From the sequence record OX457022: 44,532 nucleotides of DNA. One strand, written 5' to 3'. Shown piece by piece: positions 22,509 to 38,719 of the stretch. The stretch is from Escherichia phage vB_EcoP-CC1. The position numbers and the translations under genes are program-made. Position 1 is the stretch's first letter, and every line of letters begins with the position of its first letter. The notes under the pieces are model-generated. The model was not told where the DNA came from. It saw only the letters and a program-made list of their open reading frames with translations, and did not search any database.

Positions 22509-22702
22509 TGATAAACTCCGAACTGGTAGATAATGGTGTGAAGCTGGCGCCACCTGCATTAGTCTCAGGTGGGTACTTCCTCGGTATCAGTTGGGACAAT
22601 TTGGTACTGATAGCAACATTCATTTATACAGTGTTGCAGATTGGCGATTGGTTCTATACTAAATATACAATATGGAGGAATAAGCATGAGCGTGCACAAT
22701 AA
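22508..22702 (+). CDS. class II holin (T7 gp17.5-like)
   Basis: 64 aa; segment FIYTVLQIGDWFY resembles T7 holin YTVVQIGAKV; hydrophobic core plus basic C-terminus; RBS AAGGAGG. Confidence 0.7.
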   Translation: MINSELVDNGVKLAPPALVSGGYFLGISWDNLVLIATFIYTVLQIGDWFYTKYTIWRNKHERAQ

Positions 22703-22985
22703 ACATGCAGCCACAGAGGATGAAGTAGGCATCCTTCATGGCGCTATTACGAAGATGTTTAATAAGAAAGCACAGGCTATACTGGACACTATAGAAGAAG
22801 ACCCTGATTCTGCTATGCACTTAGTGTCAGGTAAGGATATTGGAGCCATGTGTAAGTGGGTTTTAGATAATGGCATTACTGCAACCCCTGCTGCACAGCA
22901 GGAAGAATCTAAGTTGTCTAAGCGTCTCAAGGCTATCCGAGAGGCGTCCAGTGGTAAGATCATTCAGTTTACTAAGGAGGATTAA
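22686..22985 (+). CDS. terminase small subunit (gp18-like)
   Basis: 99 aa from ATG 22686 (GGAGGA upstream); immediately precedes terminase large subunit. Confidence 0.55.
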   Translation: MSVHNKHAATEDEVGILHGAITKMFNKKAQAILDTIEEDPDSAMHLVSGKDIGAMCKWVLDNGITATPAAQQEESKLSKRLKAIREASSGKIIQFTKED

Positions 22986-27333: not shown

Positions 27334-28857
27334 ATGGCTAAACTAACGAGAGTCACTGACTGGCTTGTTAAGGTAAAGTCCAGACTCACTGGTGCAGTAG
27401 AGCGACTGCTTGAAGATAAGTTAAATGACACGGTTAGTGTTAAGGACTTCGGTGCTAAGGGTGACGGTGTGACAGACGACACACAAGCATTTGCTGCCGC
27501 CTCAGCCGCATCGCCTCAAGGTGTTTATGTGCCTGACGGAACATATTTATTACCAGAAGATATTAATGGCAGGTTCTATGGTTCTGGTAAACGCATCAAG
27601 GCTGTAGGTGATGGTGGTATTCCTTTTACCAATGTAGCTCAGTCACATAGTAACCTAATATTAGGATATGATGCTGCAAAGGATTACACGGACGAAGGGA
27701 AAGGCAACCAATTAGTATTACTTGGCCCAAGCTCCGGTCGTAACCTTACCACTGGTACTAACTCCATTGTGGTAGGTGTTGGTGGCCTATCGGGTGATAC
27801 ATTAGAAGATGCACTAACAGATAAATCACCTTTCACTGGTACAGAGATTATTAGCATTGGTATCAATGCTCTTAAGAAAACTACCACTGGTAACAACATG
27901 ATTGGTATTGGTCGTGATGCCCTGAACGAGTGTAAGGATGGAAGATTCAACGTAGCTATAGGTATGTCTGCTTTGCAGCAGCTACACTCTGGTGAGGCTA
28001 ACGTAGCAATAGGGCGTTCAGCCGGTATGCGTACTGGCATCTTCACTAACGAAGATGGTGTACGATTAGGCTATACAAAATGTAGCGGTAATACCTTAAT
28101 AGGTAACGCGGCTGGTCGTGAATTGAAGTCAGGTAATCATAACACCGCCGTAGGCAATGGTGCTATGCGAGGTGTCAGTTCTGATATTAATCCATATACT
28201 GGCACTCTAGAGGGTAATTTTAATACAGCTATTGGTGTTGATACCTTAAACTCCTTAGCATCTGGTGAGTTGAACACCATGATTGGCGCAAGGGCTGGGC
28301 GTAAATTACCTAGTGGCTCTGGTAACATCTTCATCGGTGCGGATGCAGGTGCAGGTATTAACATTGAAAAGTCTAACACTCTCATTATTAACAACCACAC
28401 TGGCTTACCTTTCGTAGAAGGTATTATGGATGGTGCTCAGAGTGAGAATAACTACTTACGTGTTGATGGAAGTGTAGCACCTCAGATTGATAACACAAGA
28501 ACTTGTGGTCAGTCTAGCCGTAGATGGCAGACTGTCTTTTCTACCAATGGTGTTATCCAGACATCGGATGGACGATGCAAGGATGTCTACGATATTGCCA
28601 AGACGGAGTACATGGCTGGTCTAGAGTTATCTTCTAGTATGATTAAGTTCAAATGGACAGATACTAAAGAAGATAAGTATCACTTCGGTTGTCTGGCACA
28701 AGAGGTCATGCTGATTATGGAGAAACATGGGTTAAACCCTCTGGATTATTCCCTCGTTACCTATGATGCTGAAGCAGATATGTATGGTGTTAACTATGCA
28801 GAATTGTCTTGCTTCTGTATCGCAGCAATGTCCAATCATGTACTAGGCAGTGCGTAA
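27334..28857 (+). CDS. tailspike with pectate-lyase-like beta-helix and C-terminal S74-like chaperone domain
   Basis: 507 aa from ATG 27334 (AGGAGA RBS); motif VKDFGAKGDGVTDDTQAF typical of pectate-lyase-fold depolymerases; C-terminal SDGRCKDVYDI chaperone-like motif. Confidence 0.8.
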   Translation: MAKLTRVTDWLVKVKSRLTGAVERLLEDKLNDTVSVKDFGAKGDGVTDDTQAFAAASAASPQGVYVPDGTYLLPEDINGRFYGSGKRIKAVGDGGIPFTNVAQSHSNLILGYDAAKDYTDEGKGNQLVLLGPSSGRNLTTGTNSIVVGVGGLSGDTLEDALTDKSPFTGTEIISIGINALKKTTTGNNMIGIGRDALNECKDGRFNVAIGMSALQQLHSGEANVAIGRSAGMRTGIFTNEDGVRLGYTKCSGNTLIGNAAGRELKSGNHNTAVGNGAMRGVSSDINPYTGTLEGNFNTAIGVDTLNSLASGELNTMIGARAGRKLPSGSGNIFIGADAGAGINIEKSNTLIINNHTGLPFVEGIMDGAQSENNYLRVDGSVAPQIDNTRTCGQSSRRWQTVFSTNGVIQTSDGRCKDVYDIAKTEYMAGLELSSSMIKFKWTDTKEDKYHFGCLAQEVMLIMEKHGLNPLDYSLVTYDAEADMYGVNYAELSCFCIAAMSNHVLGSA

Positions 28858-28870
28858 GCACTGCTTTTCT
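28847..28870 (+). terminator. hairpin terminator overlapping tailspike stop (GCAGTGC-GUAA-GCACTGC then TTTTCT)
   Basis: 7-bp perfect stem, GNRA-type loop containing the stop codon, U-rich tail. Confidence 0.55.
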
Positions 28871-28937
28871 CGCAACTTCCCTTGAAGCAATCTAGCGATA
28901 CCTTCAAGGGAATAGCTCAAGAAAGCAAGGAGGTTTG

Positions 28938-29087
28938 ATGCCGTTGATCAAATCAGTTAAGCAAAGTGCTGTACACCAGAACACAGAAGAACTTATTCAA
29001 TCAGGACGTGACCCTAAGCAGGCCTATGCCATTGCCAAGGATGTACAGCGTCGTGCCATGAAGAAACCTTCTGCATCTTCTGCGTAA
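28938..29087 (+). CDS. hypothetical small basic protein (49 aa)
   Basis: Below ORF-track cutoff; strong RBS AAGGAGG 6 nt upstream of ATG. Confidence 0.4.
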   Translation: MPLIKSVKQSAVHQNTEELIQSGRDPKQAYAIAKDVQRRAMKKPSASSA

Positions 29088-29221
29088 TCAGGTTAATATC
29101 TTAGTGTACACAAGGGCAAACCTATGATAGCTCACAGCACACCTCTGAGTGCCGCTCTGGATTCTATGAATTGTTCCCTGACTATCTAGGTTTGCTCTTA
29201 GTATATTACAAAGGAGGTCAC

Positions 29222-29377
29222 ATGATTTGGATCCACACGTATGGTGTAGGGTCATTCAAGAAGAATGTACTCAGGAAGATCCATGAGTCCGAGGAATCAG
29301 CCTTAGCCAGCCAGAAGGTACTTGGTGGTACTATCCAGTGCTACATGAAGAAGCCACAAGGTTTTGACTTAGTGTAA
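29222..29377 (+). CDS. hypothetical small protein (51 aa)
   Basis: AAAGGAGG RBS 5 nt upstream of ATG 29222 (ORF track begins 29171). Confidence 0.4.
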   Translation: MIWIHTYGVGSFKKNVLRKIHESEESALASQKVLGGTIQCYMKKPQGFDLV

Positions 29378-29430
29378 CCAAAGGTGGTCACAAAGTAACC
29401 AAAGTCAAAATTTTGATGTAGGCGTGTGTC

Positions 29431-29475
29431 AGCCCTCTCGCCCTCGCCCTCGCCGGGTTGTCCCCATAGGGTGGC
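29431..29475. other. GC-rich block in terminal region ((CCCTCG)n then CCCCATAGGG)
   Basis: Non-coding; CCCCATAGGG resembles the CCCCCATAGGGGG element recalled near the T7 left end; candidate terminal-repeat/packaging region. Confidence 0.4.
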
Positions 29476-30092
29476 CTGAGGGAATCCGTCTTCGACGGGC
29501 AGGGCTGATGTACTCCTTGTACTAGCTTAGTAGTACACAAGGGCTGGCCTTTTGTTTTGCCATGTACTAGCAAGGTGGAACGCTGGAGAGCGCCTAGGAC
29601 GGCCTAGGGATGGGCTTAGTGGTGGACAAGGTGATTGCCTTAGTGAAGCCTCTTAGTGCATTCCTGAGGCCATTCAGGGCGTTTATGAGATATTGACAGG
29701 GTGTGCGTGGGTGGGCTATCTGTTCGTTTCGTTCACTCCGCTTGCGCTACGTTCACTCGCTCACGTGTACCTTAGGTTGTTCCTTGATGGATAGCTTAGG
29801 TTAGCCTTAGTGGACTACCTTAGTTATAACCTTAGTGCTTATCTTAGTAATAGCTTAGTAATGTACCTTAGTAAGTCTTAGTGTCTTCTCTTAGTGATTG
29901 CACATGCAAGCATGTAAGATGCCATTAGGTCGCGGTCGGTAGACCGCTAAAGAAAGAGAATAGTAATAAGATGCAGTAGGAGGAACACCAGAAACCTAGC
30001 CAACCTAACCTATCCTAGCTCTGTATCTATTGCTTTTCCTTAGTCTAACATGTGAGACAACCTAGATTTATCTTAGTGATGATAGCTTAGTG

Positions 30093-30121
30093 TTGACAAG
30101 GCCATCTCAATGTAATACTAT
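30093..30121 (+). promoter_or_regulatory. candidate host sigma70 early promoter (TTGACA-17-TACTAT)
   Basis: Perfect -35, 5/6 -10, 17-nt spacer; upstream of early small ORFs. Confidence 0.45.
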
Positions 30122-30193
30122 TCATCACGTAGGCAGCACTGAGGTGCTTAGTAGCCAGCTAGTAAGGCATACGAAGAGACTAGTGCCTGCATT

Positions 30194-30209
30194 GCTCTTT
30201 AACAATTTG
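30194..30209 (+). promoter_or_regulatory. RNase-III-site-like element GCTCTTTAACAATTTG (copy 1)
   Basis: 16-mer repeated exactly at 30805; resembles recalled T7 R0.3 site GCTCTTTAACAATCTGG. Confidence 0.4.
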
Positions 30210-30263
30210 CTTAGTGTAACCTATGTATGCCGTGGTTAATTACTTATTGAATGAGGGTTAACT

Positions 30264-30359
30264 ATGAATTACGAAGAAATGTATGAAGACTACTTCAATT
30301 CACTTGATGAAGGAGAAGAAGCATTGTCCTTTGCTGAGTTTATGGAGGCTTTATCATGA
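30264..30359 (+). CDS. hypothetical early protein (31 aa, acidic)
   Basis: Short ORF with GAGGG upstream; first ORF after terminal region. Confidence 0.3.
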   Translation: MNYEEMYEDYFNSLDEGEEALSFAEFMEALS

Positions 30360-30532
30360 TTCTGAATAACCGTGAACTATCCATTCTCTTCACCTTGTTG
30401 TGCTATATGATTCGTAACAACGAATTACTTACAGACGATGAACTGGCACTATATCACCGTTTCCTTAACGAAGGTTGGGTCGATACAGTTAACCAGAAAC
30501 GTGACTTGATGAAGGAGTTAAGCAATGTTTAA
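30356..30532 (+). CDS. hypothetical early protein (58 aa)
   Basis: ATGA overlap with previous ORF; stop overlaps next ORF start. Confidence 0.35.
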   Translation: MILNNRELSILFTLLCYMIRNNELLTDDELALYHRFLNEGWVDTVNQKRDLMKELSNV

Positions 30533-30734
30533 ACATGAGATTTACACTGATTGCAGTAAATCGGCTAAAGCTATCTGCGATTTGTACAAGGCAGAATGCC
30601 AGACGTACAACCTCAACGATGGTACTGAGATGTTTTATCTTCAGTTTGAAAGCAAGTTATCTCACAAACGAGTGATTAACAGCCTGAATCAACACTCCTT
30701 GGAGTGGGAAGAAGTAAATAGCAATAAAGTTTAA
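30525..30734 (+). CDS. hypothetical early protein (69 aa)
   Basis: GAAGGAG RBS 8 nt upstream. Confidence 0.45.
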   Translation: MFKHEIYTDCSKSAKAICDLYKAECQTYNLNDGTEMFYLQFESKLSHKRVINSLNQHSLEWEEVNSNKV

Positions 30735-30743
30735 ATTAACTAT

Positions 30744-30772
30744 TGACAGCCACGGCATACAAGGTTACATTA
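30744..30772 (+). promoter_or_regulatory. candidate host sigma70 promoter (TTGACA-17-TACATT) upstream of ocr
   Basis: Perfect -35, 4/6 -10. Confidence 0.4.
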
Positions 30773-30804
30773 AGCATCAAGACGGCGACGTCTTTAAACA
30801 TCCC

Positions 30805-37996: not shown

Positions 37997-38719
37997 ATGT
38001 ATAAATTAGTATTGAATGCAGGTGATTATGTTCGTAACATCAATGAAGCCTCACGTCGTTATCGTTGCCGTGGTGTGGTTAGCTATGTAAGTGAGAACAT
38101 GTACCATGTGGAGTACAGCAACGGCATTAAACAATCTTATCATAAGAAGTTAGCACATAACTACCTTGAGAAGATTGGCGAGACAAGCAATCAATGCAAG
38201 TGTGTACATGATGAGGTTTGCGATAAGTGCAAACGTCAGGCAATTAAAGCCTTTACCTTTGCGCAACGTTATGGTTCTATGTATGGTGCTGGTCACAAGA
38301 CCGTTGCAGAAGCAGCTTGGAAGACATTACAGTTTGAGCATTCAAATGGACGACGCACCACAATTAAGAAAGAGCGCCGCAATGTCATCACTGGTAAGAC
38401 TCAAAGTGAGATGATTAAGCAATGTGGCACTGCATTAGGTGTTACACAGTTCAATACACGTGCTCTAGGTAAATCTACAGGACAAGCTATGTTTAAGATT
38501 GGTGAAGCCATGATGCACCCAAATGTACCTGTGCGAATCATGGATGTTGACCATGCAATCACAGAACATGGTACAACACGGCGTGTAGTTAATAATCATT
38601 TTGCCGACACTATAGAAGATATTATCCGTAAGCAAGGATTGAAAGGTCTTCACATCTTAAATGGTGAAGAGTTGCTGTACCTTCCTATTGTTACCGAAGA
38701 AACCTACGTGAATATCTAA
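37997..38719 (+). CDS. hypothetical protein (240 aa) with Cys cluster
   Basis: GGAGA RBS 6 nt upstream of ATG 37997; CKCVHDEVCDKC cluster; between primase and DNA polymerase. Confidence 0.55.
   Translation: MYKLVLNAGDYVRNINEASRRYRCRGVVSYVSENMYHVEYSNGIKQSYHKKLAHNYLEKIGETSNQCKCVHDEVCDKCKRQAIKAFTFAQRYGSMYGAGHKTVAEAAWKTLQFEHSNGRRTTIKKERRNVITGKTQSEMIKQCGTALGVTQFNTRALGKSTGQAMFKIGEAMMHPNVPVRIMDVDHAITEHGTTRRVVNNHFADTIEDIIRKQGLKGLHILNGEELLYLPIVTEETYVNI
38588..38609 (+). promoter_or_regulatory. weak promoter-like sequence inside coding region (ATTTTGCCGACACTATAGAAG)
   Basis: Core CACTATAGAAG intact but 3 mismatches at -13, -12, -10; probably non-functional. Confidence 0.2.

Follow-up and report, generated by a model that had tools for sequence, protein, structure and literature searches.

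A one-strand CTTAGT array around the terminal repeat of Escherichia phage vB_EcoP-CC1, very probably the SP6/K1-5-group counterpart of the T7 end repeats

The window analysed in this work was the whole 44,532-nucleotide sequence of Escherichia phage vB_EcoP-CC1 (sequence record OX457022), in which all genes were encoded on the + strand. The last late ORF ended at 29377 and the first early ORF started at 30265. The stretch between them (29378-30264) was non-coding, as the original prediction had proposed, and the alignments of relatives over this stretch showed many indels that were not multiples of three. Up to five "hypothetical proteins" were annotated across 29380-30260 in several related records (MZ234019, MZ234020, MZ234032, MZ234049 and others); considering the indel pattern, together with the repeats, promoters and terminal repeat present there, these are probably over-annotations of non-coding DNA. 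An 881-bp stretch (29380-30260) was 100% identical to Escherichia phage vB_EcoP-CC2 (OX638290.1, 44,531 bp) and 82-96% identical to many Vectrevirus genomes (e.g. K1-5, K1E), and it matched Zindervirus (SP6, UAB_Phi78) and other Molineuxvirinae more weakly. The phage is a Vectrevirus, i.e. an SP6/K1-5-type coliphage.

The assembly was rotated and its terminal repeat (DTR) was collapsed, so that the genome ends fall inside the window. The records of K1-5 and P3a carry both ends, with DTRs of 234 bp and 283 bp respectively (that of P3a is annotated), and the DTR of SP6 has 174 bp. When six genomes were aligned, K1-5, P3a, K1E and SP6 had their left ends at 29434-29438 (TCTCGCCCTCGCC...), and the repeats of K1-5, P3a and SP6 ended on the right at 29717/29718, directly 5' of ATCTGTT; by homology, the collapsed repeat was therefore located at approximately 29436-29718 (Table 1). 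The ATCTGTT at this boundary was taken, by its sequence and its position, to be the concatemer-junction pause signal established in T7 and T3. ATCTGTT is the class II pause signal that halts the complex of T7 RNA polymerase and lysozyme at the concatemer junction to start maturation (PMC3276506). The motif was invariant at the same boundary in all the Molineuxvirinae examined, suggesting that this maturation step is shared.

Two further conserved stretches were observed at the borders of the repeat. At the left border, the 40 bp or so 5' of the left end (AAAGTCAAAATTTTGATGTAGGCGTGTGTCAG) plus the opening 40 bp or so of the repeat (29396-29478) could still be aligned with phages of Klebsiella, Pectobacterium and Lelliottia, unlike the rest of the region. 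In these opening 40 bp, the repeat was also related to that of T7 (TCTC...CCCCATAGGG, 29462-29471, vs. TCTC...CCCCCATAGGGGG). The 29396-29478 stretch probably corresponds to the terminase cutting context. At the right border, TTGACAGGGTGTG...GGGCTATCTGTT (29693-29724) was invariant from SP6 to K1-5, contained a -35-like hexamer 17-18 bp 5' of TATCTG, and overlapped the pause signal; it may be a weak host promoter or a piece of the junction signal.

Table 1. Features at and around the genome ends. Coordinates refer to the window, except in the last row, in which they refer to each of the genomes or loci named.
Feature	Coordinates	Strand	Remarks
Small terminase	22686-22985	+	PF11123, phrog_891
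CTTAGT copy before the terminal repeat	29100..29105	+	In the spacer after the penultimate small ORF; probable T7 SRR counterpart
CTTAGT copy	29197..29202	+	Just 5' of the RBS of ORF 29222-29377 (last small ORF)
CTTAGT copy at the 3' end of the last ORF (CTTAGTGTAACCAAAGG)	29368..29373	+	Among the aligned genomes, only here
Inferred DTR, single collapsed copy	29436..29718		Left end TCTCGCC..., right end abuts ATCTGTT; by homology
Four CTTAGT copies within the terminal repeat	29526, 29615, 29639, 29652 (29526..29657)	+	
ATCTGTT at the right boundary of the repeat	29718..29724	+	Invariant in all relatives
Two CTTAGG variants (one mismatch)	29771, 29795	+	Lead into and extend the core run
Core array, eight CTTAGT copies	29806..29895	+	Probable T7 SRL counterpart
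Two small hairpins	29902-29906/29911-29915; 29932-29937/29942-29947	+	Directly 3' of the core array
Five dispersed CTTAGT copies	30039, 30072, 30086, 30147, 30210 (30039..30215)	+	Early-promoter/leader region
Strong sigma-70-type early promoter	30093..30121	+	TTGACA, 17 nt, TACTAT; ~656 bp from the inferred left end
Core protein, function not assigned (240 aa, Cys-rich)	37997-38719		phrog_6703; CxC...CxxC motif
DnaA-box loci of S16c-like phages	L140 (S16c) 44562-44720; L159 1528-1667; L160 804-942; L167 1372-1531; L168 1582-1741		

The span 29526-30215 contained seventeen exact CTTAGT copies, all of them on the + strand; 16 were located in 29615-30215, and the - strand was free of the hexamer throughout 29090-30220. 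The figure of about 20 copies originally predicted was a fair one: it is reached with these 16, the copy at 29526, the two CTTAGG variants and the three copies upstream of the repeat. Both strands of the window together contained 57 CTTAGT (29.6 +/- 5.7 in shuffled sequences), and the excess was wholly local. The density in the remaining genome was 0.46 per kb and strand, from which 0.33 copies were expected in the end region vs. 17 found (Poisson p ~1e-23). All other 600-bp windows had at most 2 copies on either strand, vs. 16 in the end region, and the copies outside the end region showed no strand skew (18 on +, 22 on -). This genome-wide count contradicts the alternative that the hexamer is equally frequent throughout the genome: the enrichment was confined to one place and one strand.

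The consensus could be extended to CTTAGT[G/A], since G or A followed the hexamer in 18 of 20 copies. The bases preceding it were only weakly constrained, and the CCTTAGT form accounted for 6 of 17 copies. Start-to-start gaps in the core run (29806-29895) were 13, 12, 12, 11, 13, 10 and 13 bp, and two tight pairs were present outside the core (29639/29652 and 30072/30086). The intervals of 11-13 bp described in the original prediction hold inside these clusters but not elsewhere, where copies were 24-154 bp apart.

The terminal repeat itself was located inside the array region, a point absent from the original prediction, with one part of the array within the repeat and the rest on either side. 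Four copies were inside the repeat, three in the 340 bp to its left, and ten (2 variants plus 8 exact copies) 50-180 bp to its right; the remaining five were scattered further right, up to the first early gene (30265). The copies at 29100 and 29197 were both intergenic, the first with a conserved positional counterpart in K1-5 and in Raoultella phage P3a, and the second kept in K1-5, P3a and SP6. With respect to the physical ends, homology places the array in the DTR and on both its flanks, and comparison with the end regions of SP6, K1-5 and K1E favoured the structural interpretation first given to these repeats, as a non-coding array at the genome ends.

The segment from ATCTGTT to the conserved hairpin was aligned in 12 non-identical Vectrevirus/Zindervirus sequences (GenBank, IMG/VR). 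Mean pairwise identity in the 12 genomes was 0.93 for the hexamer columns and 0.66 for the spacer columns, and invariant columns numbered 49 of 60 in the motif vs. 15 of 69 in the spacers (Mann-Whitney p = 1.5e-11). The hexamer is under purifying selection and the spacers are not, and each copy is selected. Spacers were unlike between units of one genome and recognisably orthologous across genomes, which indicates that the units are old and individually maintained. Copy number changed by whole units, L060 and L071 each being two units short. The pattern carries the signature of individually kept, sequence-specific sites and not that of a recently homogenised satellite.

The T7 arrays of short repeats, SRL and SRR, were reportedly described by Dunn and Studier in 1983, and the original prediction had proposed them as analogous. 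Direct counting in the ends of T7 and T3 revealed an equivalent arrangement. In T7, CCTAAAG was found inside the 160-bp repeat (positions 17, 41 and 60), right after it (175, 188, 213, 226, 239, 293, 306 and 332, mostly 13 bp apart and with one-mismatch variants interspersed), and before the right repeat (39671 and 39700, plus variants), with none on the bottom strand. The T7 repeat ended in ...GTGTCCCT (...CCCT) followed by ATCTGTT, as did that of T3, which had the same layout with the word CCTAAAG/CTTAAAG in one orientation. The arrays of T7 and T3 and the one described here were all non-coding and on the top strand only, with copies in the repeat, a dense run to its right and few copies to its left; in all of them the repeat ended at ATCTGTT and host early promoters followed further downstream. 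The T7 promoters A1-A3 are located at 498-750, and the first strong sigma-70 promoter here, at about 656 bp, is of the same order. The words differ (CTTAGT[G/A] here vs. CCTAAAG in T7, with only C1, T3, A4 and G7 in common); the array is thus positionally equivalent to that of T7, and homology between the words is unsupported. We consider it very probable (about 0.9) that the array is the SP6/K1-5-group (Molineuxvirinae) counterpart of T7 SRL/SRR, and that it is under selection.

Several other conserved elements accompanied the array. The hairpins that follow the core array (29896-29995) showed compensatory changes in 6 of 11 pairs over five genera, and this interval is predicted to be a conserved structured element, either as RNA or as single-stranded DNA; no Rfam covariance model matched 28800-30800 with E up to 1. 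The hairpins were followed by an A-rich stretch and by the invariant block GATGCAG..ACACC, with AAGATGC present twice. A near-palindrome, GTCTAACATGTGAGAC, was located at 30043-30058 between two clusters of copies, and its counterpart was perfect (GTCTAACATGTTAGAC or CCAACATGTTGG type) in K1-5, K1E, SP6, PM116, POP72, phD2B and S16c; it could be a putative binding site for a dimeric protein. The GCTCTTTAACAA box (30194-30205), about 60 nt 5' of the first early gene, was invariant in five Molineuxvirinae genera and duplicated in SP6, and may be an RNA processing or leader element. In S16c-like Klebsiella phages, the inferred terminal repeat, taken as the DNA from the left-end sequence to ATCTGT, contained co-oriented DnaA boxes (TTATCCACA) over about 170 bp, 4-5 of them perfect and 2-3 with one mismatch (5-7 perfect in another count), suggesting that these phages recruit the DnaA of the host to their ends or titrate it there; the window had no DnaA boxes at the corresponding place. 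A long-range inverted repeat (29789-29805/29999-30015), absent from SP6, was rejected as a structure. Resemblances to the upstream half of the SP6 promoter (TTTAGGTG), Tus-Ter, EcoKI and Chi were rejected by eye, and a resemblance to the DnaA box was rejected by scanning.

The order of the elements formed a scaffold: repeat, ATCTGT(T/C), spacer, array, two hairpins, the invariant GATGCAG..ACACC block, further copies, the palindrome (GTCTAACATGTTAGAC type), copies, the major sigma-70 promoter, the GCTCTTTAACAA box and the first gene. This scaffold was recognisable in Proteus phage PM116 (Acadevirus), Pectobacterium phage POP72 (Axomammavirus), Klebsiella phage S16c and Lelliottia phage phD2B (Tuodvirus). 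CTTAGT was the word used by Vectrevirus, Zindervirus, Acadevirus (PM116) and Axomammavirus (POP72); S16c used (C)ATAGTG(C), with (C)ATAGTG across five Klebsiella S16c-like genomes, and phD2B used CATGATG. In 27 IMG/VR loci recovered via the RNA polymerase gene, the dominant local word was CTTAGT in 20, ATAGTG in 4 (S16c-like) and CATGATG in 1 (phD2B). The other two (L147 and L161) had no array, in an upstream sequence that was short and devoid of ATCTGT and may lack the left end. The preferred spacing was about 12 bp in all three word classes (mean 12.1 over 22 Molineuxvirinae loci), and the longest tight run ranged from 2 to 9 copies.

POP72 and phD2B, with different words, were close relatives: their core proteins were 70-93% identical overall (DNA polymerase 83%, primase-helicase 89%, large terminase 93%, small terminase 74%) and the flanks of their arrays were orthologous, which points to a discrete switch of all the copies within a conserved frame. 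Co-evolution of the sites with a reader would be expected to give such a switch. T7 and K1-5 both infect E. coli and use different words, making a host reader unlikely; SP6 (Salmonella), K1-5 (E. coli), PM116 (Proteus) and POP72 (Pectobacterium), from four host genera, have the same word, which favours a reader inherited with the phage. From these comparisons, word switching points to a sequence-specific reader, more probably encoded by the phage than by the host. A scan of IMG/VR for three CTTAGT at array spacing led to 120 stretches being fetched, of which 8 aligned to the window (SP6-like); the pattern alone is therefore not diagnostic of such arrays. The same pattern in bacterial genomes was found in scattered, unrelated taxa, with no Enterobacterales among the matches listed, and nothing in these matches pointed to an array in host chromosomes or to a host reader.

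No protein conserved in CTTAGT phages and divergent in the others was found when the window was compared with PM116, POP72, S16c and phD2B, a comparison in which independent switches were too few and motif classes coincided with clades. The small terminase was 77, 70, 66 and 69% identical to those of PM116, POP72, S16c and phD2B respectively, with no pattern following motif class, and the internal virion proteins did not track it either. Early genes were for the most part not shared, even between phages with CTTAGT, and this speaks against a reader encoded by an early gene. The product of 37997-38719, a poorly conserved core protein, is a speculative candidate. A fixed wrap of the array around the small-terminase ring was considered and dropped, given the variable length of the tight runs.

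The words CTTAGTG, CATAGTG, CATGATG and CCTAAAG all fit C-N-T-R-R-W-G, and might represent a single evolving "address code" with a conserved phage protein as its putative reader, an idea we regard as doubtful. The reader might then be the gp18-family small terminase or a core protein such as the 37997-38719 product. If the idea were true, a word switch would create packaging or maturation incompatibility between co-infecting relatives, i.e. a self/non-self system for genome ends, and a function would be assigned to T7 SRL/SRR. The swap of the word between close relatives on a kept scaffold is in our judgement worth following, and offers an experimental handle on the function of T7-type arrays.

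The most likely role of the array, though at somewhat less than even odds, is that of a cis landmark for junction recognition during DNA maturation and packaging. In replicating concatemers, the copies make up a single cluster, about 1.1 kb long and with the genome junction at its centre, in which each copy would be a putative site for a sequence-specific DNA-binding protein and neighbouring protomers might bind cooperatively at the spacing of about 12 bp. The occupied array and the RNA polymerase pause site ATCTGTT would together mark the junction for the maturation/packaging machinery, and the mark could serve in terminase recruitment or in the recognition of an approaching genome end. We infer protein binding and the packaging role from the position of the copies, which flank the junction, are also present inside the repeat and adjoin the pause site, and from the precedent of T7, for which recognition of a concatemer pac element by the small terminase is reported (PMC9860248). 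Copies on both sides of the repeat fit a role centred on the junction. Against packaging, no phage protein followed the motif class in the five genomes compared, the copies were distributed asymmetrically (13 exact copies to the right of the repeat vs. 3 to the left), and they reached as far as the early promoters, more than a signal for packaging alone would need. T3 and T7 packaging is reported as mutually specific in the title of Tsuchida 1996 (cited in PMC9860248), and the two phages share the heptamer; going by that title, the word alone would not be the specificity determinant there.

A role in genome entry seems unlikely. In this reading the array, on the first 650 bp or so to enter the cell and ahead of the first strong host promoter (30093), would be bound by a host protein or by a virion protein after its ejection, and the bound protein would hold, protect or pace the leading end until host RNA polymerase takes hold and draws in the remainder. 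Thirteen of the approximately 20 copies were indeed located between the left repeat and the first early gene, and the densest run was 335-460 bp into the genome as counted from the inferred left end; the distance to the first strong sigma-70 promoter was comparable to that of T7 A1-A3, and the single polarity of the copies is what a directional process would give. However, conserved copies (including those of T7 SRR) were also present upstream of the right repeat, the end that enters last; the different words of T7 and K1-5 in the same host make a host reader unlikely, and internal virion proteins did not follow motif class. The stop of transcription-independent T7 entry depends on gp16 and is not known to depend on DNA sequence, which also counts against an entry role. 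The data favour a junction-centred role over an entry-only role, and prove neither.

Control of early transcription, by operator-like sites through which a phage or host factor would modulate or shut off host RNA polymerase at the early promoters, or clear the junction of transcription late in infection, is distinctly unlikely. The evidence for it came from the major early promoter, which was kept in relatives and whose -35 hexamer was abutted by the copy at 30086 (CTTAGTgTTGACA, 30086-30098). S16c had its own word at the same place (ATAGTGcTTGACA), the CATGATG of phD2B overlapped its -35, T7 A1 reads TTGACTTAAAG, and two more copies (30147 and 30210) were located in the leader. However, POP72 and phD2B both had ATAGTGc beside the -35, whatever the word of their arrays, so that the copy at the -35 may be mere promoter context. 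The core array, the copies in the repeat and those before it were hundreds of bp from any promoter, no strong promoter was present in 29724-30090, and early gene sets were not shared among CTTAGT phages. The SP6-type 22-bp promoter consensus had 12 matches in the window and none in 29378-30264.

It is improbable that the array functions in replication or recombination, either by forming with the hairpins an origin-like or priming region, or by promoting duplication of the terminal repeat. The hairpins supported by covariation and the invariant block follow the array directly; the 5-7 co-oriented perfect DnaA boxes in the repeat of the S16c lineage indicate that arrays for replication-type proteins are possible in this region, and in T7 the left array is followed by phiOL (nt 405), which is associated with a secondary replication origin. 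Nevertheless, the units of 6-7 bp were far below iteron length, the window had no AT-rich unwinding element, the region contained no DnaA box with one mismatch or fewer, and no phage promoter was present in the stretch. The SP6 primase site is GCA, a trinucleotide absent from CTTAGT, which also counts against a replication role.

Expansion by neutral, microsatellite-like slippage is highly improbable: whole units were gained or lost (two in each of L060 and L071), but slippage would homogenise the 12-bp units, whereas the spacers within a genome all differed and orthologous ones were shared, only the hexamer was conserved (93% vs. 66%), and the layout persisted across subfamilies (T7, T3 and five Molineuxvirinae genera), with dispersed single copies conserved as well.

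Phages of the K1-5, K1E and SP6 type are used in therapy and in engineered transducing particles, so that knowing the cis elements around the repeat, and the repeat itself at 29436-29718, matters for genome rebooting (feasible for SP6 according to PMC9860248), annotation and the design of packaging plasmids. A full-text literature search for the motif or for SRL/SRR gave nothing relevant in a coverage that did not extend to the primary 2004 SP6/K1-5 genome papers (Dobbins; Scholl) or the T7/T3 packaging-signal papers. To our knowledge, the function of the T7 terminal heptamer arrays remains unproven after four decades.

Compared with other known systems, the array resembles in part the repeats recognised by terminases (lambda cosB R sites, SPP1 pacL/pacR boxes, T7/T3 pacB), which are also short repeated sites near the terminase cut and differ among related phages; binding by the small terminase is hypothetical here, and the copy number is much higher and the extent greater, 1.1 kb reaching into the promoter region. 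With KOPS (FtsK) and Chi (RecBCD) it has in common a short, strictly strand-polar word, meaningful to a directional machine, but those words are distributed genome-wide with a skew, whereas CTTAGT was concentrated at one locus and unskewed elsewhere. Like iterons, the copies were direct repeats in one orientation, under selection, with a lineage-specific sequence suggesting co-evolution with a binding protein. Iterons have 17-22 bp, usually number 3-7, and lie beside a rep gene and an AT-rich unwinding element; none of these features was found here, and no rep gene was adjacent to the array.

The closest comparison is with T7 and T3, from which the array differed in its details. Spacing within runs was 10-13 bp here and mostly 13 bp in T7/T3; the distance from ATCTGTT to the array was about 50 nt here and 8 nt in T7; two conserved hairpins took the place of the phage promoter phiOL that follows the T7 array, and the right-side array was weaker (2-3 copies) than that of T7. 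The kind of element has been known from T7 since 1983, and the SP6 group, with its own word, provides a further member.
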